Positions 1 through 60,127 of a stretch of 64,000 nucleotides of DNA are shown here, piece by piece. The notes under the pieces were generated by a model that was given only the letters and a program-made list of their open reading frames with translations, did no database searches and was not told the origin of the DNA. This DNA is from Squalus acanthias (Eukaryota): assembly GCA_030390025.1 (NCBI GenBank), contig CM059440.1, positions 43,586,001-43,650,000 on the forward strand. Reading direction: 5' to 3'. Every line of letters starts with the position of its first letter. The first letter of the stretch is position 1. The position numbers and the translations under genes are program-made.

Positions 1-14
1 CGCTTGAGCTGCGG

Positions 15-818
15 GTGGATGAGTTTTGGAGCATACGCGATGCTGAGAGGGTCGTGGATGACACGTTTAACAAGTTGGTCATGCCGCAGGGTAGGGCTGC
101 ACAGGCAGAAGGGAAATGGGTGACCATCAGGCGGAGCAGCAGAGGCAGGCAGGGAGTACAGGGAACCCCTGCGGTCATCCCCCTTTCAAACAGGTATACC
201 GATTTGGATACTGTTGAGGGGGATGACTCACCAGGGGAGAGTGGCAGCAGCCAACTTCCTGGCACCAGGGGTGCTTCTGCTGCTCAGAAAGGGAGGAAAA
301 AGAGTGGGAGAGCAATAGTGGTAGGGGATTCTATCGTAAGGGGAACAGATAGGCGTTTCTGTGGCAGTAAACGTGACTCCAGGATGGTTTGTTGCCTCCC
401 TGGGGCCAGGGTCATGGATGTCACTGAGCGGCTACAGGGCATTCTTAAGGGGGAGGGTGAGCAGGCAGAGGTCGTGGTTCACACTGGGACCAACGACATA
501 GGTAGGAAGGGGGATGAGGTCCTGCATCAAGAATTTAGGGAGCTAGGCAGCAGATTAAAGAGCAGGACCTCAAAGGTTGTAATCTCTGGATTACTCCCAG
601 TGCCACATGCTAGTGAGTATAGGAATAGGAGGATAGAACAGATGAATGCGTGGCTAAAGATTTGGTGCAGGAGGGAGGGTTTTAGTTTCCTGGATCACTG
701 GGCCTGCTTCTGGGGAAGGTGGGACTTGTACAAGTCGGACGGTTTGCACCTGAACCAGAGCGGGACAAATATCCTTGCGGGGAGGTTTGCTAGCACTGTT
801 GGGGGGGGTTTAAACTAA
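15..818 (+). CDS. CR1 ORF1, SGNH/GDSL esterase-like domain (partial, likely starts before the window)
   Basis: Motifs IVVGDSIVR, CLPGARV, VVHTGTND and DGLHLN typical of CR1 ORF1 esterases. Confidence 0.9.
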   Translation: MDEFWSIRDAERVVDDTFNKLVMPQGRAAQAEGKWVTIRRSSRGRQGVQGTPAVIPLSNRYTDLDTVEGDDSPGESGSSQLPGTRGASAAQKGRKKSGRAIVVGDSIVRGTDRRFCGSKRDSRMVCCLPGARVMDVTERLQGILKGEGEQAEVVVHTGTNDIGRKGDEVLHQEFRELGSRLKSRTSKVVISGLLPVPHASEYRNRRIEQMNAWLKIWCRREGFSFLDHWACFWGRWDLYKSDGLHLNQSGTNILAGRFASTVGGGLN

Positions 819-819
819 C

Positions 820-3734
820 TTGGCAGGGGGATGGGATCAGAGTGGAGCTACAATAGGGGGTGATGTACAGTCAAATATAGAGAAAAAAACAAGTCAGCTT
901 GGAAGACAGGGCAAACATGTAAGAGCAAGGCTGGAAGGTATCTATTTTAATGCAAGGAGTCTAGCGAATAAGGTGGATGAACTGAAGGTGTTGATAAACA
1001 CATGGGAGTATGATATTGTTGCTATCACGGAGATATGGTTGAGGGAGGGGCAAGACTGGCAGCTCAATATTCCGGGGTACAGAATCTTCAGGCGAGACAG
1101 AGGGGGAGGTATAAGAGGAGGGGGTGTCGCAATATTAATTAAGGAATCAATTACTGCCATAAGGAGGGATGATATATTAGCAGGTTCCTCCAATGAGGCT
1201 ATATGGGTGGAGCTTAAAAACAAAAAGGGGGCAAGCACTTTGCTGGGAGCGTACTATAGGCCCCCAAACAGTCAGGGGGAGATAGAGGAACAGATATGTA
1301 GGCAAATCTCAGAGAAATGTGCAAATAATAGGGTAATAATAATGGGGGATTTCAACTTCCCCAATATTAACTGGGATAGTCAGAGTGTGAAGGGCTTAGA
1401 GGGTTCAAAATTCTTAAAGTGCATCCAGGAGAGCTTTTTGAGCCAGCATGTAGAAAGTCCTACAAGGGAGGGGGCGGTACTGGACCTAATTCTAGGGAAT
1501 GTGGCCGGCCAAGTGGAAGAAGTGCTAGTAGGTGAGCACTTTGGTGACAGTGACCATAATACGGTGAGATTTAAGGTGGTCATGGAAAAGGACAGGGATG
1601 GGCCGGAAATAAAGGTTCTAAATTGGGGGAAGGCCGATTTTAATAAGATAAGGCAGGATCTGGCCAAAATGGAGTGGGATCAGCTGCTTGTAGGAAAATC
1701 CGCATCGGAGCAATGGGATTCTTTCAGAAGGGAGATTGAGATCATACAATGGCAGCATGTTCCCGTAAAGGTCAAGGGTGGTTCCAAAAACCCCAGGGAA
1801 CCTTGGATGTCAGGGGATATACGAGAATGGATCAGGAAAAAAAGGAGGGCTTTTGGCAGATACAAAATGCTAAAGACGGAGGAAGCACTAGAGGAGTACA
1901 AAAAGTGCAGGGGGATACTTAAAAAAGAAATTAAGAGATCAAAGAGGGTCCATGAAATAACACTGGCGAGCAAAATAAAGGAAAATCCTAAGATGTTTTA
2001 TAAGTATATTAAGGGTAAGAGGATAACTAGGGAAAAAATAGGGCCCATTAGGGACAAAAGTGGCAATCTGTGTGTGGAGCCAGAAGATGTAGGTGGGGTT
2101 CTAAATGAATTTTTTGCATCTGTTTTCACTATGGAGAAGGACGATGCAGACATAAAATTAGGGCGGGGGACTGTGATATACTCGAACATTTTAACATCAA
2201 GAGGGAGGAGGTATTGGCGGTTTTAGCAGGTCTAAAAATGGATAAATCCCTAGGTCCGGACGAAATGTATCCCAGGCTGCTGTGTGAGGCAAAGGAGGAG
2301 ATTGCGGGGGCTCTAACACATATATTCAGAACCTCTCTGGCCACAGGGGATGTGCCAGAGGACTGGAGAACCGCTAATGTAGTACCATTATTCAAGAAAG
2401 GGAGTAGGGAAAAACCGGGGAACTACAGGCCAGTGAGCCTAACATCAGTGGTAGGAAAATTATTGGAAAAAATTCTGAGGGACAAAATTAGTCTCCACTT
2501 GGAGAGGCAAGGATTAATTAGGGTTAGCCAACATGGCTTTGTCAAGGGAAGATCATGTCTGACTAATTTGATTGAATTTTGTGAGGGGGTGACTAGGTGT
2601 GTGGATGAGGGTAACGCAGTGGATGTGGTATACATGGATTTCAGTAAGGCCTTCGATAAAGTCCCGCACAGGAGACTGGTCAAGAAGGTAAGAGCCCATG
2701 GAATCCAGGGTGCCTTGGCACATTGGATACAAAACTGGCTCAGTGGCAGAAGGCAGAGGGTGATGGTCGAAGGTTGTTTTTGTGACTGGAAGCCTGTGGC
2801 CAGTGGGGTACCACAGGGATCGGTGCTGGGTCCCTTGCTGTTTGTGGTCTACATTAACGACTTGGATATGAATGTAAAAGGTATGATCAGTAAGTTCGCG
2901 GATGATACAAAAATTGGTAGGGTGGTAAATAGCGAGGAGGGTAGCCTCAGTCTGCAGGACGATATAGATGGTTTGGTCAGATGGGCGGAACAGTGGCAAA
3001 TGGAATTTAATCCGGAAAAGTGCGAGGTGATGCACTTTGGAGGGACTAACAAGGCAAGGGAATACACAATGAATGGTAAGACCCTAGGCAAGACGGAGGG
3101 TCAGAGGGATCTTGGTGTGCAAGTACACAGATCCCTGAAGGCGGCGGAACAGGTGGATAAGGTGGTAAAAAAGGCATATGGGATACTTATATTCTATGCC
3201 TCGGCTAATGAATGCAAGAGCAAGGAGGTTATGATGGAGCTGTATAAAACACTGGTTAGGCCACATCTGGAATACTGTGTGCAGTTCTGGTCGCCACACT
3301 ACAGGAAGGATGTGATCGCTTTGGAGAGGGTGCAGAGGAGATTCACCAGAATGTTACCCGGGCTGGAGTGCTTCAGCTATGAAGAGAGACTGGGCAGATT
3401 GGGTTTGTTTTCCTTGGAGCAGAGGAGGCTGAGGGGGGACATGATTGAGGTGTACAAAATTATGAGGGGCATAGATAGGATGGATACTAAGGAGCTTTTT
3501 CCCTTAGTACAGGGGTCTATAACAAGGGGGCATAGATTCAAGGTAAAGGGCGGGAGGTTTAGAAGGGATTTGAGAAAGAACTTTTTCACCCAGAGGGTGG
3601 TTGGAGTCTGGAACTCACTGCCTGAAAGGGTTGCGGAGGCAGGAACCCTCACAACATTCAAGAAGCATTTGGATGAGCACTTGAAACGCCATAGCATACA
3701 AGGCTACGGACCAAATGCTGGAATATGGGATTAG
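820..3734 (+). pseudogene. CR1 ORF2 (APE endonuclease + reverse transcriptase) with one frameshift near 2160
   Basis: YFNARSL, YRPP, GDFN and SDH in 820..2226; [23 protein letters not shown] and FADD in 2214..3734. The frame shifts at ~2155-2170, where the GDCDILEHFNIKREEVL segment is out of frame. Confidence 0.92.
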
Positions 3735-3815
3735 ATTAGACAGGGCTTGATGGCCGGCGCGGACACGATGGGCTGAAGGGCCTCTATCCATGCTGTATAA
3801 CTCTGTGACTCTATG

Positions 3816-4430
3816 TTCACACTGCCGTACTCACCGTGCTAATCACTACTAACACTGCCGTACTCACCGTGCTAATCACTGTTCACACTGCCGTACTCAC
3901 CGTGCTAATCACTGTTCACACTGCCGTACTCACCGTGCTAATCACTACTAACACTGCCGTACTCACCGTGCTAATCACTACTAACACTGCCGTACTCACC
4001 GTGCTAATCACTACTAACACTGCCGTACTCACCGTGCTAATCACTGTTCACACTGCCGTACTCACCGTGCTAATCACTGTTCACACTGCCGTACTCACCG
4101 TGCTAATCACTACTAACACTGCCGTACTCACCGTGCTAATCACTACTAACACTGCCGTACTCACCGTGCTAATCACTACTAACACTGCCGTACTCACCGT
4201 GCTAATCACTGTTCACACTGCCGTACTCACCGTGCTAATCACTACTAACACTGCCGTACTCACCGTGCTAATCACTACTAACACTGCCGTACTTACCGTG
4301 CTAATCACTAACACTGCCGTACTCACCGTGCTAATCACTGTTCACACTGCCGTATTCACCGTGCTAATCACTGTTCACACTGCCGTACTCACCACGCTAA
4401 TCACCGTGCTAATCCCTACCAACACTGCCG
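3816..4430. repeat. 33-bp minisatellite, ~18 copies, two unit variants
   Basis: Unit ACTGCCGTACTCACCGTGCTAATCACT followed by ACTAAC or GTTCAC. Confidence 0.95.
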
Positions 4431-5970
4431 TTGCTATGGGAACCCACATGGGTCCTAGCTATGCCTGTCTTTTCATGGGATATGTGGAACACTCTTTGTT
4501 CCAGTCCTACTCGGGTCCCCTCCCTCACCTCTTTTTCCGGTACATTGATGACTGTATCGGTGCTGTTTCCTGCTCTCGCCCTGAACTAGATAATTTCATT
4601 CACGATGCTTCCAATTTCCACCCTTCCCTCACCTTCACATAGTCCATCTCCGACTCTTCCCTTCCCTTCCTCGACTTCTCTGTCTCCATTTCTGGAGATA
4701 GGCTATCGACCAACATTCACTATAAGTCCACTGACTCCCACAGCTACCTGAACTACACTTCCTCCCAGCCCGCCTCCTGTAAGGACTCTATTCCATTCTC
4801 CCAGTTTCTCCGTCTCCGCCGCATCTGCTCTGACGATGCCACCTTCCATACCAGTGCTTCCGACATGTCTTCCTTTTTCCTCAACCAAGGATTCCCCTCT
4901 ACTGTGGTTGACACGACCCTTGACTGTGTCCGTTCTATCTCCCGCACTTCTGCTCTCACCCCTGCCCCTCCCTCCCGGAACCACGATAGGGTTCCACTTG
5001 TCCTCACCTTTCACCCCACCAGCCTCCACATTCAACGGATCATCCTCCGCCATTTCCGCCACCTCCAGCGTGATCCCACCACCACACACATCTTCCCCTC
5101 CCCTCCCCTTTCAGCATTCCGTAGGGACCGCTCCCTCCGCGACACCCTAGTCCACTCCTCAATCACCCGCAACACCCCTTCCCCTGGCACCTTCCCGTGC
5201 AAGCACAGGAGATGCAACACATGCCCTTATACCTCCCCCCTTCTCACTATCCAGAGCCCCAAACATCCCTTCCAGGAGAAACAGCGATTTACTTGTACTT
5301 CTTGCAATTTAGTATACTGTATTCGCTGCTCATGATGTGGTCTCCTCTACATTGGGGAGACCAAACGCAGATTGGGTGACCGCTTTGCGGAACATCTCCG
5401 TTCAGTCCGCAAGGGTGACCTCGAGCTTCCGGTCGCATGTCACTTTAATTCTCCGCTCCACTCCCACTCAGACCTCTCCGTCCTCGGCCTCTTACACTGT
5501 TCCAACGAAGCTCAACGTAAGGTCGAGGAACAGCACCTCATCTTTCGATTAGGCACTTTACAGCCTTCTGGACTCAACATCGAGTTCAACAATTTCAGAC
5601 TATAACCTTGGCCCCTGTATTTCTTTATATTTTTTTCTCTTGTTTTCTCACATGGTAGTTGTTAATGTTGCTGCCATCATCATTCACACATCATCTCGAG
5701 CCATCTTTTGTTTCTTAACTTGTCCCATTACCTCTCCTTTTGCCTCGCACCATCATCCCTTTTGTCATTCAATCTCTCCTGCCTTCCATCCTATCACAGA
5801 CCTTCCCTTTGTTCTTTCCTCCCTCCTCCCTGCCCCTGCTTAAAAATTACTCTTCTCTAATCTTTTCCAGTTCTGACGAAGGGTCCCTGACCTGAAACGT
5901 TGACTGTTTCTCTCTCAATGCTGCCTTACCTGCTGAGTGTTTCCAGCATTGTCTGTCGTTATTTCAGATT
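4429..5970 (+). mobile_element. 5'-truncated Penelope-like retroelement (RT C-terminal part + GIY-YIG endonuclease), decayed
   Basis: VAMGTHMGPSYACLFM and FRYIDD (RT); C-x2-C, LVYCIRCS*CGLLYIGETKRRLGDRFAEH and GLN (GIY-YIG). In-frame stops at ~4640 and ~5333. The 3' region carries a hammerhead motif. Confidence 0.92.
5868..5906 (+). ncRNA. Minimal type I hammerhead ribozyme motif in the Penelope 3' region
   Basis: CAGTT-CTGACGA-AGGGTC CCT GACCT-GAAA-CG-TT-GACTG. Stem I is CAGUU/GACUG, both core boxes are present, and stem III is the palindrome ACGU. Confidence 0.75.
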
Positions 5971-13135: not shown

Positions 13136-16100
13136 GACACCATCCTCATCAACACCAGACACCATCCTCATCGACATCAGACACCACCATCCTCATCAAC
13201 ACCAGACACCATCCTCATCGACACCAGACACCATCCTCATCAACACCAGACACCACCATCCTCATCAACACCAGACACCATCCTCATCGACACCAGACAC
13301 CATCCTCATCGACACCAGACACCATCCTCATCAACACCAGACACCATCCTCATCGACATCAGACACCACCATCCTCATCAACACCAGACACCATCCTCAT
13401 CGACATCAGACACCACCATCCTCATCAACACCAGACACCATCCTCATCAACACCAGACACCATCCTCATCAACACCAGACACCACCATCCTCATCAACAC
13501 CAGACACCATCCTCATCAACACCAGACACCATCCTCATCAACACCAGACACCATCCTCATCAACACCAGACAACACCATCCTCATCAACACCAGACAACA
13601 CCATCCTCATCAACACCAGACAACACCATCCTCATCAACACCAGACAACACCATCCTCATCAACACCAGACACCATCCTCATCAACACCAGACACCATCC
13701 TCATCAACACCAGACACCATCCTCATCAACACCAGACAACACCATCCTCATCAACACCAGACACCATCCTCATCGACACCAGACACCATCCTCATCGACA
13801 CCAGACACCATCCTCATCGACACCAGACACCATCCTCATCGACACCAGACACCATCCTCATCGACACCAGACACCATCCTCATCGACACCAGACACCATC
13901 CTCATCGACACCAGACACCATCCTCATCGACACCAGACAACACCATCCTCATCGACACCAGACACCATCCTCATCAACACCAGACACCATCCTCATCAAC
14001 ACCAGACACCATCCTCATCAACACCAGACACCACCATCCTCATCTACACCAGACACCACCATCCTCATCTACACCAGACACCACCATCCTCATCAACACC
14101 AGACACCATCCTCATCAACACCAGACAACACCATCCTCATCAACACCAGACAACACCATCCTCATCAACACCAGACAACACCATCCTCATCAACACCAGA
14201 CACCATCCTCATCAACACCAGACACCATCCTCATCAACACCAGACAACACCATCCTCATCAACACCAGACAACACCATCCTCATCAACACCAGACAACAC
14301 CATCCTCATCAACACCAGACACCATCCTCATCAACACCAGACAACACCATCCTCATCAACACCAGACACCATCCTCATCGACACCAGACACCACCATCCT
14401 CATCGACACCAGACACCACCATCCTCATCGACACCAGACACCATCCTCATCGACACCAGACACCATCCTCATCGACACCAGACACCATCCTCATCGACAC
14501 CAGACACCATCCTCATCGACACCAGACACCATCCTCATCGACACCAGACACCACCCTCATCAACACCAGACACCATCCTCATCAACACCAGACACCATCC
14601 TCATCAACACCAGACACCATCCTCATCAACACCAGACACCATCCTCATCAACACCAGACACCATCCTCATCAACACCAGACAACACCATCCTCATCGACA
14701 CCAAACACCATCCTCATCAAAACCAGACAACACCATCCTCATCAACATCAGACACCATCCTCATCGACACCAGACACCATCCTCATCAACACCAGACACC
14801 ATCCTCATCAACACCAGACACCATCCTCATCAACACCAGACACCATCCTCATCAACACCAGACAACACCATCCTCATCAACACCAGACAACACCATCCTC
14901 ATCAACACCAGACAACACCATCCTCATCAACACCAGACACCATCCTCATCAACACCAGACACCATCCTCATCTACACCAGACAACACCATCCTCATCTAC
15001 ACCAGACAACACCATCCTCATCTACACCAGACAACACCATCCTCATCAACATCAGACACCATCCTCATCAACACCAGACACCATCCTCATCAACATCAGA
15101 CACCATCCTCATCTACACCAGACAACACCATCCTCATCTACACCAGACAACACCATCCTCATCTACACCAGACAACACCATCCTCATCTACACCAGACAA
15201 CACCATCCTCATCTACACCAGACAACACCATCCTCATCTACATCAGACAACATCCTCATCAACACCAGACACCATCCTCATCAACATCAGGCACCATCCT
15301 CATCTACACCAGACAACACCCTCATCTACATCAGACAACACCATCCTCATCTACATCAGACAACACCATCCTCATCGACACCAGACACCATCCTCATCGA
15401 CACCAGACACCATCCTCATCGACACCAGACACCATCCTCATCGACACCAGACACCATCCTCATCGACACCAGACACCACCCTCATCAACACCAGACACCA
15501 TCCTCATCAACACCAGACACCATCCTCATCAACACCAGACACCATCCTCATCAACACCAGACACCATCCTCATCAACACCAGACACCATCCTCATCAACA
15601 CCAGACAACACCATCCTCATCGACACCAAACACCATCCTCATCAAAACCAGACAACACCATCCTCATCAACATCAGACACCATCCTCATCGACACCAGAC
15701 ACCATCCTCATCAACACCAGACACCATCCTCATCAACACCAGACACCATCCTCATCAACACCAGACACCATCCTCATCAACACCAGACAACACCATCCTC
15801 ATCAACACCAGACAACACCATCCTCATCAACACCAGACAACACCATCCTCATCAACACCAGACACCATCCTCATCAACACCAGACACCATCCTCATCTAC
15901 ACCAGACAACACCATCCTCATCTACACCAGACAACACCATCCTCATCAACATCAGACACCATCCTCATCAACATCAGACACCATCCTCATCTACACCAGA
16001 CAACACCATCCTCATCTACACCAGACAACACCATCCTCATCTACACCAGACAACACCATCCTCATCTACACCAGACAACACCATCCTCATCTACATCAGA

Positions 16101-19100
16101 CAACATCCTCATCAACACCAGACACCATCCTCATCAACATCAGGCACCATCCTCATCTACACCAGACAACACCCTCATCTACATCAGACAACACCATCCT
16201 CATCTACATCAGACAACACCATCCTCATCAACACCAGACACCATCCTCATCAACACCAGACACCATCCTCATCAACACCAGACAACACCATCCTCATCAA
16301 CACCAGACACCATCCTCATCAACATCAGACACCATCCTCATCAACACCAGACAACACCATCCTCATCAACACCAGACAACACCATCCTCATCAACACCAG
16401 ACACCATCCTCATCAACACCAGACAACACCATCCTCATCAACGCCAGACACCATCCTCATCAACACCAGACACCACCATCCTCATCGACACCACACACCA
16501 CCATCCTCATCGACACCAGACACCATCCTCATCGACACCAGACACCATCCTCATCGACACCAGACACCATCCTCATCGACACCAGACACCATCCTCATCG
16601 ACACCAGACACCATCCTCATCGACACCAGACACCACCCTCATCGACACCAGACACCATCCTCATCAACACCAGACACCATCCTCATCAACACCAGACACC
16701 ATCCTCATCAACACCAGACACCATCCTCATCAACACCAGACACCATCCTCATCGACACCAAACACCATCCTCATCAAAACCAGACAACACCATCCTCATC
16801 AACATCAGACACCATCCTCATCGACACCAGACACCATCCTCATCAACACCAGACACCATCCTCATCAACACCAGACACCATCCTCATCAACACCAGACAC
16901 CATCCTCATCAACACCAGACAACACCATCCTCATCAACACCAGACAACACCATCCTCATCAACACCAGACAACACCATCCTCATCAACACCAGACACCAT
17001 CCTCATCAACACCAGACACCATCCTCATCAACACCAGACAACACCATCCTCATCAACACCAGACAACACCATCCTCATCAATACCAGACACCATCCTCAT
17101 CAACACCAGACACCATCCTCATCTACACCAGACAACACCATCCTCATCTACACCAGACAACACCATCCTCATCTACACCAGACAACACCATCCTCATCAA
17201 CATCAGACACCATCCTCATCAACACCAGACACCATCCTCATCAACATCAGACACCATCCTCATCTACACCAGACAACACCATCCTCATCTACACCAGACA
17301 ACACCATCCTCATCTACACCAGACAACACCATCCTCATCTACACCAGACAACACCATCCTCATCTACACCAGACAACACCATCCTCATCTACATCAGACA
17401 ACATCCTCATCAACACCAGACACCATCCTCATCAACATCAGGCACCATCCTCATCTACACCAGACAACACCCTCATCTACATCAGACAACACCATCCTCA
17501 TCTACATCAGACAACACCATCCTCATCAACACCAGACACCATCCTCATCAACACCAGACAACACCCTCATCAACACCAGACAACACCATCCTCATCTACA
17601 TCAGACAACACCATCCTCATCAACACCAGACAACACCATCCTCATCAACACCAGACAACACCATCCTCATCAACACCAGACACCATCCTCATCAACACCA
17701 GACACCATCCTCATCAACACCAGACACCATCCTCATCAACACCAGACACCATCCTCATCAACACCAGACACCATCCTCATCAACACCAGACAACACCATC
17801 CTCATCCACATCAGACACCATCCTCATCGACACCAGACAACACCATCCTCATCGACATCAGACAACACCATCCTCATCCACATCAGACACCATCCTCATC
17901 AACACCAGACACCATCCTCATCAACATCAGACACCATCCTCATCAACACCAGACACCATCCTCATCAACATCAGACACCATCCTCATCAACACCAGACAC
18001 CATCCTCATCTACACCAGACAACACCATCCTCATCTACACCAGACAACACCATCCTCATCTACACCAGACAACACCATCCTCATCTACACCAGACAACAC
18101 CATCCTCATCTACACCAGACAACACCATCCTCATCTACACCAGACAACACCATCCTCATCTACACCAGACAACACCATCCTCATCTACACCAGACAACAC
18201 CATCCTCATCTACATCAGACAACATCCTCATCAACATCAGACACCATCCTCATCAACACCAGACACCATCCTCATCTACACCAGACAACACCATCCTCAT
18301 CTACATCAGACAACACCATCCTCATCAACACCAGACACCATCCTCATCAACACCAGACACCATCCTCATCAACACCAGACACCATCCTCATCTACATCAG
18401 ACAACACCATCCTCATCAACACCAGACACCATCCTCATCTACACCAGACAACACCATCCTCATCAACACCAGACACCATCCTCATCAACACCAGACACCA
18501 TCCTCATCAACACCAGACAACACCATCCTCATCAACACCAGACAACACCATCCTCATCTACATCAGACAACACCATCCTCATCTACATCAGACAACACCA
18601 TCCTCATCGACATCAGACAACACCATCCTCATCTACATCAGACAACACCATCCTCATCTACATCAGACAACACCATCCTCATCTACATCAGACAACACCA
18701 TCCTCATCTACATCAGACAACACCATCCTCATCTACATCAGACAACACCATCCTCATCTACATCAGACAACACCATCCTCATCTACATCAGACAACACCA
18801 TCCTCATCTACATCAGACACCATCCTCATCTACATCAGACAACACCATCCTCATCTACATCAGACAACACCATCCTCATCTACATCAGACAACACCATCC
18901 TCATCTACATCAGACAACACCATCCTCATCTACATCAGGCAACACCACCCTCATCTACATCAGACAACACCATCCTCATCTACATCAGACAACACCATCC
19001 TCATCTACATCAGACACCATCTCCTCATCTACATCAGACAACACCATCCTCATCTACATCAGACAACACCATCCTCATCTACACCAGACAACACCATCCT

Positions 19101-19390
19101 CATCTACATCAGACACCATCCTCATCGACATCAGACAACACCATCCTCATCTACATCAGACACCACCATCCTCATCGACATCAGACACCACCATCCTCAT
19201 CTACATCAGACAACACCATCCTCATCTACATCAGACAACACCATCCTCATCTACACCAGACAACACCATCCTCATCTACACCAGACAACACCATCCTCAT
19301 CCACATCAGACAACACCATCCTCATCTACATCAGACGACACCATCCTCATCTACATCAGACACCATCCTCATCTGCATCAGGCACCACCA
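13136..19390. repeat. ~6.25-kb minisatellite of 22/25-bp units
   Basis: Unit ACACCATCCTCATC(A/G/T)ACA(C/T)CAG with an optional 3-nt insertion. The + strand is C/A-rich and has no stop codons. Confidence 0.98.
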
Positions 19391-23166: not shown

Positions 23167-23637
23167 GCACGCACCAGGGGCCCAGCACGCACCAGGGGCC
23201 CAGCACGCACCAGCGGCCCAGCACGCACCAGCGGCCCAGCACGCACCAGCGGCCCAGCACGCACCAGGGGCCCAGCACGCACCAGCGGCCCAGCACGCAC
23301 CAGGGGCCCAGCACGCACCAGCGGCCCAGCACGCACCAGCGGCCCAGCACGCACCAGGGGCCCAGCACGCACCAGCGGCCCAGCACGCACCAGCGGCCCA
23401 GCACGCACCAGCGGCCCAGCACGCACCAGCGGCCCAGCACGCACCAGCGGCCCAGCACGCACCAGGGGCCCAGCACGCACCAGCGGCCCAGCACGCACCA
23501 GCGGCCCAGCACGCACCAGGGGCCCAGCACGCACCAGCGGCCCAGCACGCACCAGGGGCCCAGCACGCACCAGCGGCCCAGCACGCACCAGCGGCCCAGC
23601 ACGCACCAGGGGCCCAGCACGCACCAGGGGCCCAGCA
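23167..23637. repeat. 18-bp GC-rich minisatellite, ~26 copies
   Basis: Unit GCACGCACCAG(C/G)GGCCCA. Confidence 0.97.
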
Positions 23638-23759: not shown

Positions 23760-25770
23760 ACTGGCACATGTAATCCTAACATTCACCACCAGATCTGGCT
23801 GGACCACGTAAAGCACTGTCGGGTCTTGCTCTCGTCTGCCAAAATTGCTCACTATTCCAGAATCATTTTGGAATGCAAAGATAAACCCCAGCTTCTTTTC
23901 TCCATTGCTAACCGTCTTCTTAAACCCCTCTCCCGACAACAAGCGTGAGGAGCTCATGGACTTCTTTGTCTCTAAGATTGAGACCATCCGTTCAGCTGCC
24001 TTTGCCACTTCCCTTCCTTCCCCTAGCCCACCGGGGCAAACTTCCTCTAAGGTTCCCCCCTGCCCTAGTCCTGAACTCACATCTTTCTCCAGTTTCGCTC
24101 CGATCTCCCCTCATGACCTCTCCGCACTCATCATGTCCATGAGACCCACTTTCTGCTCCCTCGACCCTATTCCCACTAAACTGACCACCCAACTTCCTTT
24201 TCTGGCTCCCATGTTAACTGATATTGTTAACGGTTCTCTCTCCTCAGGTACTGTCCCCCTCTCCCTCAAATCTGCTATCATCACCCCTCTCCTCAAAAAA
24301 ACAACCCTTGACCCCTCCGTCCTTGCAAACTACCGCCCCATCTCCAACCCCCCTTTCCTCTCCAAAGTCTTTGAACGTGTTGTCGCCTCCCAAATCCGTG
24401 TCCATCTTTCTCGCAACTCCTGTTTGAATCCCTCCAATCAGGTTTCTGCCCCTGCCACAGTACCAAAACGGCTCTCATTAAAGTCACAAATGACATCCTC
24501 TGTGACTGTGACAAAGGTAAACTATCCCTCCTTGTCCTTCTCGACCTGTCTGCAGCCTTTGACACGGTTGACCACTCCATCCTCCTCCAACGCCTCTCCA
24601 CCATCGTCCAGCTGGGTGGGACAGCACTCGCCTGGTTCCATTCTCATCTATCTAATCGTAGCCAGAAAATCACCTGCAATGACTTCTCTTCCCACTCCCA
24701 CATCGTTACCTCTGGTGTCCCCGAAGGAGGTATCCTTGGCCCCCTCCTATTTCTCATCTACATACTGCCCCTTGGAGACATCATCCAGAAAACACAGCGT
24801 CAGTTCCTACATGTACGCTGACGACACCCAGCTCTACCTCACCACTACTTCTCTCGATCCCTCCACGGTTTCTAAATTGTCAGACTGATTGTCCAATATC
24901 CAGTACTGGATGAGCAGAAATTTTCTCCAATTAAACATTGGGAAGACTGAAGCCGTTGTTTTCGGTCCCCGCCACAAACTCTGTTCCCTTGCCACTGACT
25001 CCATCCCTCTCCCTAACATCTGTCTGAGGCTGAACCACACTGTTCGCAATCTTGGCATCATATTTGACCCTGAAATGAGCTTCCGACCACATATTCATGG
25101 CATAACTAAGACCGCCTATTTCCACCTCCGTAACATCGCCCGTCTCCGCCCTTGCCTCAGCTCATCTGCTGCTGAAACCCTCATCCATGCCTTTGTTACC
25201 TCTAGACTTGACTATTCCAACGCACTCCAGGCTGGCCTCCCACATTCTACCCTACGTAAACTTGAGGTCATCCAAAACTCGGCTGCCCGTGTCCTAACTC
25301 GCACCAAATCCCGTTCACCCATCGCTCCTGTGCTCGCTGACCTACATTGGCTCCCGGTTAAGCAACGCCTCGATTTCAAAATTCTCATCCTTGTTTTCAA
25401 ATCCCTCCATGGCCTCGTCCCTCCCTATCTCTGTAATCTCCTCCAGCCCCGCAACCCCCCCCCACACCCCCTGAGATATCTGCGCTCCTCTAATTCTGCC
25501 CTCTTGAGCATCTCTGATGATAATCGCTCCACCATTGGTGGCCGTGCCTTCTGTTGCCTAGGCCCTAAACTCTGGAATCCCTTCCCTAAACCTCTCCGCC
25601 TCCCTAACTCTCTCTCCTCCTTTAAGATGCTCCTTAAAACCTACCTCTTTGACCAAGCTTTTGGTCATCTGCCTTAATTTCTCCTTATGTGGCTCGGTGT
25701 CAAATTTTCTGTTTTATAATACTCCTGTGCAGCGCCTTAGGACGTTTTACTACGTTAAAGGCGCTATATT
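23760..25770 (+). mobile_element. L2 LINE, 5'-truncated, with frameshifted RT
   Basis: LDPIPT, NYRPISN, YADDTQLY, SRLDYSN and LHWLPV motifs; tail AAAGGCGCTATAT. Confidence 0.92.
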
Positions 25771-32837: not shown

Positions 32838-33372
32838 GCCGGGAGGTCAATGCGCAGCGGGAGCCGGGAGGTCAATGCGCAGCGGGAGCCGGGAGGTCGA
32901 TGCGCAGCGGGAGCCGGGAGGTCAATGCGCAGCGGGAGCCGGGAGGTCAATGCGCAGCGGGAGCCGGGAGGTCAATGCGCAGCGGGAGCCGGGAGGTCGA
33001 TGCGCAGCGGGAGCCGGGAGGTCGATGCGCAGCGGGAGCCGGGAGGTCAATGAGCAGCGGGAGCCGGGAGGTCAATGAGCAGCGGGAGCCGGGAGCCGGG
33101 AGGTCAATGCGCAGCGGGAGCCGGGAGCCGGGAGGTCGATGCGCAGCGGGAGCCGGGAGCCGGGAGGTCAATGTGCAGCGGGAGCCGGGAGGTCGATGCG
33201 CAGCGGGAGCCGGGAGCCGGGAGGTCGATGCGCAGCGGGAGCCGGGAGGTCGATGCGCAGCGGGAGCCGGGAGCCGGGAGGTCGATGCGCAGCGGGAGCC
33301 GGGAGGTCAATGCGCAGCGGGAGCCGGGAGCCGGGAGCCGGGAGGTCGATGTGCAGCGGGAGCCGGGAGCCG
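32838..33372. repeat. 25-bp G-rich minisatellite with extra 7-bp GGGAGCC sub-units
   Basis: Unit GGGAGGTC(A/G)ATGCGCAGCGGGAGCC; later units grow to 32 and 39 bp. Confidence 0.95.
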
Positions 33373-39660: not shown

Positions 39661-39731
39661 CTTGCATTGGCAGTGCCCAGTGGCATCACATTGGTCTCCA
39701 GTGCTTCCACTCCGGTCACAAGTACAGCCAG
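39661..39731 (-). CDS. HSPG2: Perlecan exon (laminin EGF start): xGCTCDRSGSTGDQCDATGHCQCK
   Basis: 71 nt, phase 1-0, acceptor tgtgttgcag, donor gtaatg. LE pattern C-x-C-D-x2-GS-x4-C-x3-G-x-C-x-C-K. Confidence 0.95.
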
Positions 39732-42652: not shown

Positions 42653-43499
42653 AATAATCCTCTGCGACTATTAATTTTTCTACTGAATTTTGATACATGG
42701 ATACCAGTGCCTCTGCTCTCTCCTCTTCAAGTTCTTTTGAGTATCAATGGGTCCATCAATCCATCTGGATCTGTCATGTGGTCCTCAAGTTTCATTTCAT
42801 TTCAGCTGCTAGAGAAGGTGGAATTAAAAGTAGTAGTAATGACCACCATTAGGTTTTGAGACTTACTAGTGCAACGCTGTCCATATATGGGATTCCCAGA
42901 GTAACCTGGAGCACACCTGTAACAAGTATTACAAACAGAGATTAGAAATGGCTCTTCAAACAGGACCCAAAAGTGTTTGCATATGAACCTTTTTTGAGCC
43001 CACTGACTAGGGTCAGTTTATAGTGGAATTTAATTCTGATTCATTGTCTGCAGGGTGACTATTCTTTACCCTCAGTTACGTTAACACCTCAGTAGCAGTG
43101 GATCAAGACATGATTCAGCCTCCATTCGCCAGTAAAATGATTATGAATCAATGGAAAGGCAGCTGAAAAAGAACCCACCTTCTGGCAAATCTTTACAACG
43201 CTGCGTCCAAAGAAGTGACACAAATTTGCGTTCCCGGAATGAGAAATCGTGACTGTGGTAAAAGCCAAGTCCTCGGACACAAAAGGTGAACTGCCCCTGC
43301 AGGTGCCTCCCTCCTGCCTGAATCCCTCCTGATGAAATTGGTCTTTAGGAGATTCACCAACGCTATTGTCCAGCTGTGCAAAAGTTACTTCCTAAAAAAT
43401 TCCAGATGGGTTTTGAACGTGCTGTGGTAAGTACAGATGTAAGTACAGGTGTACCCCAGTTAGAGGGTGCAACCATTGCACACACAGAGCTGTGACTAT

Positions 43500-52100: not shown

Positions 52101-55100
52101 CTTGTGTTGAGAGAAGTCCAATGCATTTTGGCTCATAAGTGGCCAAAGCACAAAGATGATCATTTCTTTCAGTGGAAGAACTGAGAGGGGTGGGGTGGGG
52201 GAGGGTGAAATTCTAGCATTTTCTCACACAAATGAAACTCACAGAGTTACAGGCAAAGAAAATATGACTGTCACTTGCCAATTGCCCTAATGAAATTTTA
52301 ATTAACAAGTGGTGGGACTCCCAGCAAATCATGGCGCTCATTGACACTGCATGCTGAAGTAAGTAGAAGATCATCAAAAGTTTTAAATGGAATGAATTGA
52401 AGATCCCGTTTTGACCATATGGTTTTGCGTGATGAATATTCATTTGTTTGGCAGGTGCTAGTTACTGACAAATGCCTTAACTTACCGGAGGCCCGGGAAA
52501 CCCAGCCGCCCACTGTAAAACCTGCAGAGCCTCATTAAATATTTAAATTGCCAATCTGCCTCGTGGGAGCGGGTTAGCTGCCCTCCCCTAGTCCCACCTC
52601 TGTAAAGCCCAGAAGTGGGCGGGTTGGAGTCGGGGTTCAGATTTTTAAATCTTAACATCTCTACTTGCCTGGACAGGTGGACCTGCAGCAACACTCAAGA
52701 AGCTCGACAGCACCCAGGACTAAAATTCAGCCCAATGAATGCGCCCTAGAAGAGAAACCTAGAAGTTCACTCTCTCAGGAGCCAGACCAATAGATGAAGG
52801 CTCTCATACCTGGAGCCCCTTTCTCAAAATGTGTGTGTGAATGGGATCATCTATAAAGGTTGGAAATGTTGAGAATGAGAAAATCCAATGGCCAATGGGG
52901 TGCAATTCCTCTGGGCAATAATTAGTGAAGAAGTGAGCCATATTTGCATGGTATCAAGGCATCGGAGGTGGAGTAAATCAAACACTCTGGCCCGAATATT
53001 CTGTGGCCCAACTCCACCATCTGGAGTGCGTTACGGCGAGACTGATGTTTTGCTTTGCCACAGCGTAAGTGAGCCCGTGGTCCAAGGAAGAACAGGATAA
53101 AAACGGTTTTAAAAGTTGCTGGTTGAGGGTGGCTGGAACGTGCCTTTAAAATGTAAATGTTGCTCACCCGCCACCGCCCCGGCCCCCGAAGCCCTGAGCC
53201 ACACTGCGCCAGGCATGCACCGGTGACCATGGCTACGACACAAATGACTGGACCTATGTTGCACCACATATTTCACTGATTTGCATGTTCTTGTAACAGA
53301 CCCACCCACGTACAGGCAGCTTCATCAGGCGGCCACGTTTGATGGGCAAGGGGCAGTGACTCACCGTGAGCTAATTCACCGGTAGCATGGCTGCACCGGG
53401 CAGTGAGTGGACGTGAGCTCCAATGAAGGGCAGATATTGCTGTAGCTGGGGCTTTTTCTATTTTACAAGAAAGCCCAGTCTTCCTAATATTCCACGGTTC
53501 TATTGAGCGGCTGCTTCGAGAGAGATCTGAGGGGTCAAACATAAATTACGGCAGACTTGTGAATGCCAATATCACTAAAAAGCTGGCGCTATCTTGGTAC
53601 AAGACGACAGATTACTTCAGCAATCTGTACAAATCCCACCATGGCCTTGGAGAAATTTACCACAGCAAGAATGTTGATTCAAAGTAGTCCATCAGGTAGG
53701 TTCTGAGAACGACTTCCTTGGTTTCCTGTATCAGCAGGAAGTCTCCACTCACCAAAGTTATTTGCTGCTGATTCTGTAAATAGGGGTATTGCACAAACTC
53801 CACTTTGGAATCTACTGATCAGGATTGGAAGCTCAATCAGGACCAACCGATTTGCACTGGAGCAAGCTGAAGGGTGCATTGTGGTCAATGTTACATCAAC
53901 TGGTCATTGGTTGCAGCTTTCAACAGTTTTGTCTTCTGTTGATGTTGGTCGATAATCAGAGCAAATGTGGAGTCCCAAAGCTGAACAAATGTGACTAGAG
54001 CTGGAGTAAGTTCTGGAGTGTTGGAGGATACAGAAAGATTCTCTCTTCAATGTGGCTCTCCCAACCTTTTTGGATCATTCATAATAGTGGTCCCTATTCT
54101 TCTGATAACTAGGAGGCAGAGGCGTGCTTCTCGGAGGATGCAAACTCGAGGCTTCTTCAGATGGAGGATCGAGAGTGACCCTTCTGGTCTGGCCCTCCAT
54201 TGAATTACTCAGCTACAGCTGGCCTGGACCAGAATTAACACCTCTGGAAATCGGTCAAAGTCAATAAACAATGGAAGCAAATGTTTTGAGTGACTGAGGA
54301 GGATCCATTACATTAAATGAGGATCCTGAAAGCCAGGACCGTCACCTCTTGGAAGAAAAAACCTACACACACCTGGACCTCAGTCAACTGAAAGTGTGAA
54401 AAGTGCGTCAGCCAAGCGCTGGATTGAGGACTTGCTAAAAGCAAATACAACTTCATAGAATGTCTGTAAAGCACACAGACTGAGGGATATTTTCTTTTGT
54501 TCGCTAATTTTAGCAACAAGCTGGATGCAAATATAAAATGCTGTTCTCTGCTTTATACTAGTCAGTTATTTCCCCCTTAAGTTAGAGATGGAGGAAGATA
54601 TACCCCCACGTAGCTTAAAGGTGTGAACTTACTGATTACAATGACGGAAGGAACTTTCTCTTCATGGATAACAGTCAGATGGGAGATAAATAGCTGAGAT
54701 TCCCCAGAAGATGGCCTTCTATAAAATAGGTTTTGGGAAGAGCATCTGACCAGCATGTTACCACCGGATCAGACGGTACAAAGCCCTGAAGTGACTTGCA
54801 CTAACCTCCCCCTTCTCTTTGGATGATGATACATGGAGAATACGGAATGGTGAAAATAGGTTACTTCTTTGGGATGATGATTTTAAAAGTCATGAATCCA
54901 AAATAGATTTGCGTTTTATAGTCTGTCTTCAGTGCTGCGTACAGTTAGTCTAGTAACACAGCAAGAGATTATTAAATGCAGTGCTACATTTAAACAGCTG
55001 AAGGTGATGTTATTGGGTTTCATTTTCTATTTGGCAACGCTAACTTTCAAAAGGGAGATTTCAATCCCAGTTTATAAAAAGGATTTAAGTACTCTTCGAG

Positions 55101-55913
55101 GAAAAAAAAGTCAAAACAGCATTGATCGTGTAAGCAAACAACCGACATCAAGGGGAGATGGGCGAGTGAAATAAAATGAGCCCGAGGTTGAGCCCAGGTG
55201 CACCCAGAATCAGAAGAGTTTGAAATTCAGTCTCTTTTTACCTTAGTGCGGCCGTGGAGTTTCTGTACTCGCACACACTGCCGACCTGACCACAAGGATG
55301 TGGCTCGTTGACCACTGTAATTAACTGATTGTTAAATCTACGTCAGTCTCAGGGACGCAGGTCATGAAATACAACGAGACAGACATTCGATCGAAGTGGA
55401 ACGATTCACAATCCTTCAGCAGGTGAACCACAAGCACTCCACTGAAAACAACCCAGGTTCAAGTTAATCGGAAGAAGGTGTGGAGGTGCAATGTGACGCC
55501 CATTTCCTTTGGGTGCAATGATTGAATATTTGAATCAAAAAGAGACTAACTTGTTGAATTCAATAAATTATTAAAAAGACAGGCTTCTGTACAGATTATT
55601 CCAATAGAACAAATGCAAGGAAACCAAGTGCGTCACTTGAATTGAGGTAGTTATTTGCACCTCATTACGGTTTAAAATGAGCTACATTTTACTTTCACAA
55701 ACTACATTACATAACACCGTCAAAATGTTTGACATTTACTTTGTACGTCGTTTTATACAGATAAGTGCAAAAGAATCTCGCTCAGTTCTCAGTGAATGTG
55801 AACCTTACACTTCGGCAAATAAGATTCTCGAGCACAAGACCAGTTACTAGATGGAAGTGTCTGTTCACCTATTTTTCATTGCGATGAACTCTGAACGCCA
55901 GCAGAGAAGCTCA

Positions 55914-58075
55914 TCAATCTGGGATGATTTTTATCGGTATGGCGAGGCGGCCCAGGGTGATATAGAGGGGCAGGTCCTTGACTTTCCCATTGGAGTTGGA
56001 ATAGTGCTGATGCCCTCCTCGCAGGAGCTGCAGGATGTCTAGTGCCGTCACTTTTTTAGTCTTTTTCTTTCTGCTTCCTGCCAGTTTGTTCCTTGGGGGA
56101 TCATCGCGGTCACATTTTTTAGAATGTGACCCACTTATTCGTCGACTTTCTGATCTTTTCAGTGACGCTGCAGTTGCTGGGAGCGTCGTGGTGACTGTCA
56201 GCCAGGTTTCTACCTCCGTGGAGATCTTCCTGGCAGACACCAATGTTGGCAGCACTCTGGCTTTGTCTGTAATTTTAGGCTGTGCCGTCACTGGGGATAA
56301 TGTGGTCGCACCGGATGTAGAGAAGGCCTTTCCTCTCCTGCGGATGGATGCAACGTTACTATCTTTTGATAATGGGTGCTTGATTTTATGCCTTTGGGAC
56401 CCATCTCGGTTACGTGCTGGTGCTGCAGAGGGTTTCACAGTAGTATCAAGATGTTCTGTGGTTGTTTTATCCTTGGACTGGCCAGTTCCATTTTTACCAG
56501 GTTTTGTTTTATCCTTGGACTGGCCAGTTCCATTTTTACCAGGTTTTGTTTTATCCTTGGACTGGCCAGTTCCATTTTTACCAGGTTTTGTTTTATCCTT
56601 GGACTGGCCAGTTCCATTTTTGCCAGGTTTTGTTTTATCCTTGGACTGGCCAGTTCCATTTTTGCCAGGTTTTGTTTTATCCTTGGACTGGCCAGTTCCA
56701 TTTTTGCCAGGTTTTGTTTTATCCTTGGACTGGCCAGTTCCATTTTTGCCAGGTTTTGTTTTATCCTTGGACTGCCCAGTTACATTTTTGCCAGGTTTTG
56801 TTTTACCTTTGGACTCTGTGACAGTTTTACCACTGGAATGTGTTTTCCCCTTAGCCCTAGCTGGGACCGGTGCATTATTTACAGTCTCTACGTATCCGGG
56901 TTTTACTTTCATTCCCGATACCCGTAGATGTGGTTTTGTGGGTTTCTCGAGCACAGCTGTCGGAACTGGTTGAGTGGTCAAATCCTTAGGCTCCGTGATG
57001 ACCAGAGTCACATTTGAACGCAATGTAAATGCTGTAGACGAGACTAGTTCAGGTGTGACTGCAGGTTTCACTGTTATTGTTGAGATAGCTGTTGTGGGGA
57101 CCTGCCTGACAACAGCTCTGCCTTTACCAGAAAGAGCTGGCTTTTTACGCCCATAATTAGCAGGCACTACAAATTTCCCGTTAACGTGGGCTTTGCCTGT
57201 GGGTTGCACAGGAGAGGCTGTGGATTTGACACGTGTTCGTACAGATGTCACAGGATCAACAGTAGAAGCTGCTTTTCTGTGAAAGCGAAGTGCTTTGCTT
57301 TTTACTTGCACTGTTGTGCTGAGAGAGCGACTTTTAGCAGAAGGTCTTGTGGAAACAAACCTTAAAGTTTTGCCGTTATTTCCATAAGGTGTTGGCCTCA
57401 CTTTCGATCTCGTTCTGGGACGTCCTCTGGAGTACTTGGTAAACAGATTCGTAGGAGAGCTCGTGGTAATTTTCCTGAGGCTTGGTTGATCACTATTGGT
57501 AAGAGAAGTCCTCCTTTTCTTCATCTCAGAGATTTCCTCGGCCAAGGCTGCAAAACCATCAATAAGAATCTCCAGTCGTACTTGCAAAGCGGTCAACTTG
57601 TCATCAACATCTACATACTTCCATTGGAGGTCGGAAATCAGTCTGTCTTTGGGGGGAGCTGACAACAAACGGGTGATGTTCTTCAGCTGCAAGCTTAAAT
57701 TATCTTGCCTTTTCTGTAAATGCTTGAAGCCGTCTTTAAGGTCCAAACCTGTATCCTCCAACATTGTTAGTCTTCTGTTGAAGCTGATGAGAGATGCTTT
57801 CATCAGGTGCCTGAAATTATAGGTCCTCCGTTTCAAGGTGGTCTTGACCACTGACAGAATTGTGGTTCCTCTCGTTGGCACGGTAACTGTATCTGCACTG
57901 GAAGCGTTGCCCATTCTTCCACCATCCCCAGTGGTGTTACTGCTCACCGAAGTGACAGTTTCCGTTGCATTGCCACTCGGGTCTTCTGGCCCAACTTCAG
58001 TAATCTTCTGACAGTCAACTGGCATCAACTCCTTAGATTCCAGCTTTACTGGCTGGATCCAGACTTTGCAGAATT
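55914..58075 (-). CDS. Large terminal coding exon (~720 aa): coiled coil, Thr/Lys/Arg-rich stalk, 14-aa repeats and C-terminal LGRLAIPIKIIPD. Either an alternative last exon of perlecan or part of a nested same-strand gene
   Basis: 2.2-kb stop-free, non-transposon ORF ending TGA TGA. Acceptor candidates are ctgacag/ at 58075 (phase 1) and gaaaag/ at 58086 (phase 2). Many N-x-S/T sequons. Confidence 0.82.
56463..56812 (-). repeat. 42-bp coding tandem repeat, 8 copies (PGKNGTGQSKDKTK)
   Basis: Plus-strand unit TTGTTTTATCCTTGGACTGGCCAGTTCCATTTTT(A/G)CCAGGTT; frame-preserving. Confidence 0.96.
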
Positions 58076-60127
58076 CTGTCAGATTTCTTTTCAAAGGATT
58101 AAAGGTCGTGGTCAGCAAACAAAAAACATCTTTTCTTTCTTTAAAGAAATATTGAACATGGAATTTGACAATTTGGCCTCCGATTGGCAGCCAGTTGGTT
58201 AGTTTAAAATCGGTTTCATTTTAGGCAGGTTTCTTTGAGCTGTTTTACTTGAGCACAAAGACTGGGTGGTGAAAACTCTATCGTTGACAACAATAGACAT
58301 GTTTCAGCCAAGTAGTTTTTTTGTATGTACATTACTTGTGTGTCAGTGTGGAAAGGCTTCACGCAACAACCTGCAATGCCCGCAAGCCCTGACCAACAAG
58401 TAGCCCCAGGTTAGTGAGCAGGTTAGTGACCAGCAGAAGCAGAGCAGCAAGAGCTTGATTAGGCAGCGATTAAAAGCAAAAGCCCCAGACTAGTCTGTGC
58501 ATGAAGGCCAGTTATTAATCCTGCAGCAAAATCTCCTCCCACCTGCTCCTCACCTCAATGCAACCCTCCAAAAGTTACTACCATCCCAAAAACAAACTCT
58601 CATCCTGAATCTTACTACATTTTGCAGGCTGTCGTAAGCTGGAAAGCAAACTGAGCTCTCAGGCACGTGGAAGGCAGCACTTGAAAGAATACCAGCCGGC
58701 TCGAACGTCATTGATTTGTAAACAGGTAATTCAAAACAACCCAATCACAACTTGAAACAAACAGAAGCAGCAACTGGAGAGTGCGAAGGCTGGGACCTGG
58801 AGACTCTCCTCCATTCACCAGCGGCTTTGTACCACTAACTTGGCAACTTGGCCTATTCCAAGAGTGTATATTTCTCATCTCAATAGAGCTGACCATCCAA
58901 TTGCAAGGTAATGAATAAAAAGCACAACATATACAGCGAGTTTTTCCACTTCAACTGATCAGTCGATTTTACATAGTGTTACGAAGACTGCCTGAAATCT
59001 CTCCCATTATTATAAATCAGGCTTTGAAGACAAAGCCCATTTTCCAGTTGATTTGGACGAAGGTGTCAGCTGTAGTGAGGATTAAACTGCTAACAAAGGA
59101 CTGACTGGAGTCTGTCCTGAGGGTTAACAGTGCAGACAGGTCAGACTCTTCACTTGTACAGATTGTCTCCTCGACACAATACAGCCGGGCTTTCCCTTCA
59201 CTCGGTGCAAACTCCCCAGACACGGTGGTAAAAACAGAAACATGCGCAACACATCTGGATGTTATAATGGGAGAGCTAGGGTATGAGAAGGATGAGCTAC
59301 AATGGGTGGAATGGTTTTTTTTCCATATCCTTTGACTTTTTGTGCATATATATGAAAAGTACCTCTTTAACTTCGCAAATGATTGATGCTGGGAGCACCA
59401 CTTTCTCCATTCTTGACCAGTGAGAACAGGTGCAATTGAAAGAAATATTTCGACCACTGTCCTACCAAAGGTATTAAATAATCATTCGAGAAGTGTGGGC
59501 AGATACCAACACATGACAAGAAAAAGAACACGAACCACACACACACGGTGCTAGCGGCTCAACTAAAGCTAACGGAGGGTCTCCATCCCTGCTGAGCCGC
59601 TCCATTGATGCAGATCACCGAATGTCCAGCAGCAGCTCCACTGGGGGGGAGGGGGGCAATTTCAAAGCACCCTCAAGCCCTCCAACCCAGGGTCGGCAAT
59701 CTGTAGTTGGGGAATAGACCTTTGCAATGGAGCCACTCTGGGACACCTTCCCTTACTTGGCGTCACCAGGGCAGCCCAACAGGGAGACTATGAGGCGTGA
59801 CTTGAGGGTCTAACAGCGACTGCCAAACGGTCGTCCAAGGAAAAAAAATACAAGTACATTTCAGGTGAGTTTATCATAACTGGGGAGATCACTTTTAACA
59901 GGACCACTCCCTCAAGACTTTCCTATGCCTTTTAAAAAAGATTGATGTTTTATTGATTCCTCAACCTTTGTCTCTGCGTTAGGTACTTAAATAGATTTTT
60001 TTTTTTTAAAACAGCGAGGGCAGCATGCCGCAGCTAGTATTTCTACATCCATCAGTTTCTACACTCTGCCCGGTGAGGTGCCACAGCTTTTGGCCATATA
60101 GTACAGAGTAAGCATTATAATCGTGAC

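Follow-up and report, generated by a model that had tools for sequence, protein, structure and literature searches.

The perlecan gene (hspg2) of Squalus acanthias contains an alternative last exon which, we are highly confident, is spliced onto the upstream perlecan exons to form a short isoform ending in a 723-residue tail. The exon (2.17 kb) lies on the same strand as perlecan, inside one of its introns, within the stretch of 64,000 nucleotides analysed here and called the window (contig CM059440.1, positions 43,586,001 to 43,650,000; Table 1). An earlier reading made from the sequence only had proposed an alternative last exon in place of the third L4 and domains IV–V; this proposal is now backed by a splice join found in two sequencing studies and by gene models from three other species in which the tail is fused to perlecan. 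The short perlecan protein is probably made and functional.

The stop-free frame claimed for this region is present at 55914-58220 on the minus strand and spans 768 aa from stop to stop. Its non-repeat part comprises 605 open codons, which is above chance (longest frame in 1000 base shuffles: mean 98, maximum 238). The region encoding the coil is single copy: of 4 candidates scored across the 3.7-Gb genome, 1 matched. A transposon ORF, such as a LINE ORF1, was rejected on the basis of the single genomic copy, the lack of any transposon Pfam match and the occurrence of the frame at the same position in other species, in agreement with the non-transposon status first assigned to it.

Gene context was read from 200 kb fetched on each side of the window. 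Upstream of the tail exon, perlecan exons encoding domain I in part, domain II and III-1 to III-2 follow one another in order on the minus strand, and comprise SEA, LDLRa, Ig, L4 and LE module exons; the perlecan signal-peptide exon and the domain I sulfation sites were not located among these mapped upstream exons. A pattern scan placed exons of III-3 downstream of the tail exon, together with those of domain IV (Ig) and domain V (LG/EGF). The last perlecan exon before the tail exon is an LE exon of 87 nt at L002:3015-2929, 2.9 kb beyond the window, with a phase-2 end; the upstream partner had indeed been expected outside the window. The host intron had been taken to be the phase-1 intron before the exon at 39731; it is instead the phase-2 intron before the exon at 42916-42867.

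Two further observations concern the perlecan exons themselves. When compared with the models from Chiloscyllium and sturgeon, an L4-2 exon has a one-base frame break (minus strand; L003 about 5787, G000:C16:43665787), which is most likely an assembly error; as it lies upstream of both isoforms, it would break both forms if real. Several near-identical pairs of domain IV Ig exons (G000:C16:43504074-43483325, L031-L033, minus strand) suggest recent tandem duplication or homogenisation.

The stretch is contained in 14 sequencing runs, 8 of which were guessed to be RNA and none of which is on record as RNA. Five probable RNA runs (X1-X5, with X1 from study P1 and X4 from study P2) were compared with one DNA-like run (X9). 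One contig each from X1 and X4 aligned up to 58090 and continued into 26 loose letters, which are identical to the final letters of the upstream LE exon in one contig and differ by 1 mismatch in the other; no other match with ≤3 mismatches is present on the plus strand of 264 kb. Four further letters fit both sides, so the join was placed at 58086, with removal of the 8,842-nt GT-AG intron. The join to the perlecan LE exon was found in at least two of the five probable RNA runs, originating from two studies, and the DNA-like run X9 crosses the 58086 site unbroken. Both join contigs contain 30 upstream letters, one under the 31-letter bridging rule, at depths of 3 and 7.3, and the runs compared yielded no full-length transcript. 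A 30-letter overlap is the branch product of an assembly using 31-letter words, suggesting that another path probably leaves the same donor; among the contigs listed, there was no join for the long-form splice to 42916.

The sequence-only reading had named 58075 as the first choice of acceptor and 58086 as a second option, and it is the latter that proved to be the junction in use. Since the upstream LE exon ends in phase 2, 58086 is in frame and 58075 is out of frame. The acceptor at 58086 has the same phase as the donor, is preceded by 11 pyrimidines out of 17 and is seen in the contigs; that at 58075 is a phase-1 site with 6 of 17 pyrimidines, is absent from the contigs and was dropped.

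X1 covers 55342-58090 in six pieces, with zero depth at 58148-58500 and in most unique intron bins, and X5 yielded no contig at the acceptor. X2 produced an unspliced contig spanning the acceptor, and X2-X4 cover the intron throughout, for which reason exon cover in these three runs was not used as evidence. The unspliced X2 contig could also be accounted for by a nested gene on the same strand, driven by a promoter of its own, with separate 5′ exons, and using the exon alone or besides the perlecan fusion, as could the many relatives of the tail stored as stand-alone proteins of 407-727 aa. However, the intron cover in X2-X4 runs throughout, the perlecan exon is the only 5′ loose end at the exon edge, and the stand-alone records start variably, several apparently in the intron just before the junction. 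The absence of a signal peptide pointed out initially also holds, as none of the 5 Met among the first 260 residues is followed by anything like one. With no 5′ exon of its own and no start codon with a signal peptide seen, the nested gene, originally kept as an alternative, is very improbable.

Only variant poly(A) hexamers occur near the stop, as had been noted, and canonical AATAAA is absent from 55914-51500, i.e. within 4.4 kb of the stop. Polyadenylation at the variant hexamers (about 55690-55757) would be possible, but contigs run past them to 55342 (X1) and 55058 (X5). The missing AATAAA bears on another reading, in which the exon mainly ends transcription early and lowers full-length perlecan, its product being minor or unstable; the low contig depth and the absence of protein evidence for the tail point the same way. 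Yet termination by itself needs no conservation of the kind found here: between sharks and teleosts the frame stays open over 500-720 codons, and the cysteine pair, the coil and the end motif (81% identical) are all retained. We consider early termination as the main role highly unlikely and retain the protein-coding isoform.

Table 1. Features of the alternative perlecan exon and its surroundings (window positions unless stated otherwise).
Feature	Position	Strand	Remark
Alternative last exon of perlecan (hspg2), coding part: one base completing a split Arg, 723 codons, stop	55914..58086	-	
In-frame stop-free extension: intron, not exon	58087..58220	-	
Phase-2 splice acceptor used by the tail exon	58087..58110	-	
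Donor outside the window, end of the 87-nt LE exon	G000:C16:43652929 (L002:2929)		intron 8,842 nt, GT-AG
Two cysteines, tail residues 6 and 25	58011..58070	-	
Single Ser-Gly after acidic residues	57972..57977	-	possible glycosaminoglycan site
Predicted coiled coil at tail residues 91-192, ending in a basic cluster	57510..57815	-	
Predicted disordered stalk, 488 aa, net charge +80, 25% Ser/Thr	56046..57509	-	
Lineage-specific 42-bp array in the stalk, 8.4 copies	56462..56815	-	
Conserved end: short helix (681-688), 17-residue motif (707-723, 55967-55917)	55917..56045	-	
Probable 3′ UTR	55058..55913	-	contigs 55765-56327 and 55342-55544 (X1), 55058-55295 (X5)
Competing long-form perlecan exon, entered in phase 2, two cysteines, skipped by the short form	42867..42916	-	
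Next long-form perlecan LE exon, phase 1 in	39661..39731	-	

Relatives of the tail were collected by a full HMMER search with its first 202 residues against 1.84 billion representatives (E≤0.001), which returned 18 relatives, and P0003 was added by a word search. Those with species names belong to Chiloscyllium punctatum, Acipenser sinensis (two records, both flagged UNVERIFIED_CONTAM by the source), Goodea atripinnis and Astyanax mexicanus; the protein similarity to Chiloscyllium punctatum fits the cartilaginous-fish origin of the window. In four fused gene models (Chiloscyllium, both Acipenser records and Goodea) the tail joins perlecan at the same Arg, which follows the sixth cysteine of the LE module when numbered by the general LE pattern; being predictions, these models show a conserved position and frame, not splicing. 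A profile search of longer proteins returned P0003 alone and missed the two sturgeon fusions contained in the collection, and is hence too insensitive to bear on the distribution in tetrapods. A tree of 20 coil rows comprised a shark group, sturgeon and a group containing the named teleosts.

Mean identity to the window protein is 43% for the coil (n=17), 16% for the stalk (n=16) and 81% for the last 17 residues (n=16). The composition of the stalk is stable among relatives (S+T 0.22-0.30, K+R 0.19-0.26). A short mid-stalk motif (about F-Q-L-E-P-P-S-H) is conserved in the bony-fish relatives P0005-P0028 and poorly matched in the window protein and P0002. Indels in X9 are multiples of three in 3 of 3 cases inside the coding exon, two of these three sitting at the edge of the array, and in 1 of 6 cases outside. 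Pfam gave nothing above cut-off for the tail (best E 0.31 for the window protein, with scattered weak matches among 20 members), nor did the PDB sequences (best E 0.28) or, for positions 42000-64000, Rfam; the ESM Atlas contained no usable match to the Chiloscyllium tail.

The cysteine pair at the start of the tail is kept, with a spacing of 13-19 residues, in relatives with a complete N-terminal part, and the long-form exon that the tail replaces also opens with two cysteines. An acidic Ser-Gly occurs in 16 of the 21 relatives that include the N-terminal part (some of them near-identical pairs), forming a cluster in most bony-fish relatives, a weak single site in the window protein and none in Chiloscyllium. 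The heptad-like region claimed for the exon corresponds to hydrophobic a/d heptad spacing over tail residues 91-192, arranged in two runs with a break at about 142-146. The motif RhxxhE is found once in the window protein, in heptad register at residues 105-110 (57773-57756, minus strand), at least once in all 24 relatives listed and twice in most bony-fish rows. According to the accessible part of PMC3653964, RhxxhE occurs mostly in parallel trimers, yet not always. A monomer model showed three helices over residues 84-197 (pLDDT 60-90) and disorder elsewhere, with a mean pLDDT of 47. No transmembrane anchor was found in the tail, the maximum 19-residue hydropathy (1.37) lying inside the coil.

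The stalk had been described as basic and Thr/Pro-rich; it is basic and Ser/Thr-rich (S+T 0.25, K+R 0.22), and its Pro content is modest (0.08). The 14-aa repeats reported within it are the translation of the 42-bp array, each of whose 8 units carries an N-glycosylation sequon. The end of the tail, read as ordered-looking, consists of a short helix and the conserved 17-residue motif, which is modelled with low confidence as a beta-hairpin (pLDDT about 50).

Based on these features, splicing of the LE exon to 58086 would end perlecan after III-2, and the predicted product would have about 1,900 residues (1,206 from the incomplete Chiloscyllium model plus 723), comprising domains I to III-2 and the tail without III-3, IV and V. 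It would be translated and secreted via perlecan's own signal peptide, and the two cysteines of the tail may pair with each other, closing the interrupted LE module in place of its last disulfide pair. The coil would form a parallel trimer clustering three copies of domains I–III-2, in a layout reminiscent of laminin, where a short arm leads into a coiled coil. The stalk may serve as an O-glycosylated extended polycation that spaces the heads and binds polyanions such as heparan or chondroitin sulfate, and the end motif may be a binding or self-association hairpin, so that placement in the matrix would depend on the basic stalk and the conserved end rather than on domains IV and V. We moderately favour this proposal as a whole, namely a secreted short perlecan that trimerises via its coil and is held in the matrix by its stalk and end.

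Of the oligomerising coiled coil proposed from the sequence, the heptad pattern stands and oligomerisation remains a prediction. The same isoform could act differently if the coil were dimeric, folded into an intramolecular hairpin or took part in a hetero-oligomer, and/or if a proprotein convertase cut after the coil and freed the stalk and end motif. Such actions would agree with the register break near residues 142-146, with the separation of the three helices in the monomer model and with the basic cluster that follows the coil in all 24 relatives listed; moreover, RhxxhE is not fully predictive of trimers. However, this motif lies in heptad register and has been retained in both sharks and teleosts, with two copies in most bony-fish rows, and the basic cluster mostly differs from the canonical furin form. 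These other actions of the tail are rather unlikely in our judgement, and a parallel trimer is the somewhat more probable state of the coil.

Repeats also occur in other parts of the window. A 6.2-kb array (13137-19373; unit roughly 22 bp, about 267 copies) lies in a perlecan intron and contains no stop over more than 2,100 codons in any of the three plus-strand frames. GC-rich minisatellites with spurious open frames occupy 23167-23637 (18-bp unit, 26 copies) and 32838-33372 (mixed 25-57-bp units). At 1-3734 (plus strand) there is a nearly full-length LINE with an esterase-like ORF1 end and with endonuclease and reverse transcriptase in two overlapping frames, of the CR1 type as judged by eye. 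Retroelement fragments are located at 3809-5335 (plus strand), preceded by a 33-bp array, and at 23812-25677 (plus strand); they are Penelope-like and an L2-like LINE, respectively.

The short form and full-length perlecan (HSPG2) come from one gene, but the short form stops inside the LE module before L4-3, lacks domains IV and V and gains a tail without family match. Laminin chains consist of L4/LE modules followed by a coiled coil, and short perlecan has a similar layout; its coil, however, is only about 100 aa, there is no LN or LG domain, and Pfam gave no sequence match of the tail to the laminin coil family. Short UNC-52, a product of the C. elegans perlecan gene, reportedly contains domains I-III. 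In the accessible text of PMC9010944, nidogen, fibulin-2, fibronectin, integrin and VEGFR2 interactions are carried by perlecan domains IV and V, and growth-factor and morphogen binding is assigned to domains I-III, with PDGF-BB assigned to III-2. The short perlecan-gene products named in the accessible sections of PMC6266596 (section 4) and PMC8405445 are human miniperl, mast-cell forms, C. elegans short UNC-52 and Drosophila trol-RAG/RAX. Like the present isoform they are shorter or 3′-truncated products of the gene, but those sections describe neither a fish form nor one with a new terminal exon that is long, conserved and domain-bearing. LaNt alpha31 (LAMA3), as presented in the accessible part of PMC7710073, is likewise the product of a basement-membrane gene ended early after LE repeats with a unique C-terminus; it arises by intron retention and has a unique end of 54 aa, whereas the perlecan tail is a spliced exon of 723 aa with a coil and a conserved motif. 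GenBank models containing the tail (GCC31495.1, MGH0121395.1, MGH0119153.1, MEQ2177750.1 and KAG9269071.1, four of them fused to perlecan) are hypothetical, unnamed or called perlecan or laminin-EGF protein, and the tail is not recognised as a module in any of them.

We found no description of the isoform in the literature covered, which excludes most subscription journals as well as supplements such as transcript catalogues, and the accessible passages of PMC12314657 and PMC4398486 contain nothing relevant. Vertebrate perlecan splice variants are called few and poorly characterised in the accessible text of PMC6266596 (section 4). A short perlecan with a replacement tail is likely undescribed, and the isoform likely exists in sharks, sturgeon and teleosts, as judged by sequence.

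Conservation of so long a terminal exon between sharks and teleosts implies a second, dedicated product of the perlecan gene, bearing a module absent from family libraries. It is conceivable, and we suggest it tentatively, that jawed fishes have kept a second perlecan since the shark/bony-fish split. This matrix protein would be trimeric, would cluster growth factors and would carry a hitherto unrecognised binding module at its C-terminus, with a further glycosaminoglycan site in bony fishes. A single splicing decision would then turn a basement-membrane linker into a different matrix protein, and some tetrapods may carry an equivalent, unannotated exon. If this is true, reagents directed at domains IV and V are blind to the short form. 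Should zebrafish possess the exon, 5′-end knockdowns would remove two proteins, antibodies against or lesions in domains IV-V would address one, and the reading of fish perlecan phenotypes would change. The short form would allow the role of domains I-III to be tested directly, separately from basement-membrane anchoring, and would clearly exemplify the acquisition of a whole, predicted oligomerising tail by a matrix gene via one exon.
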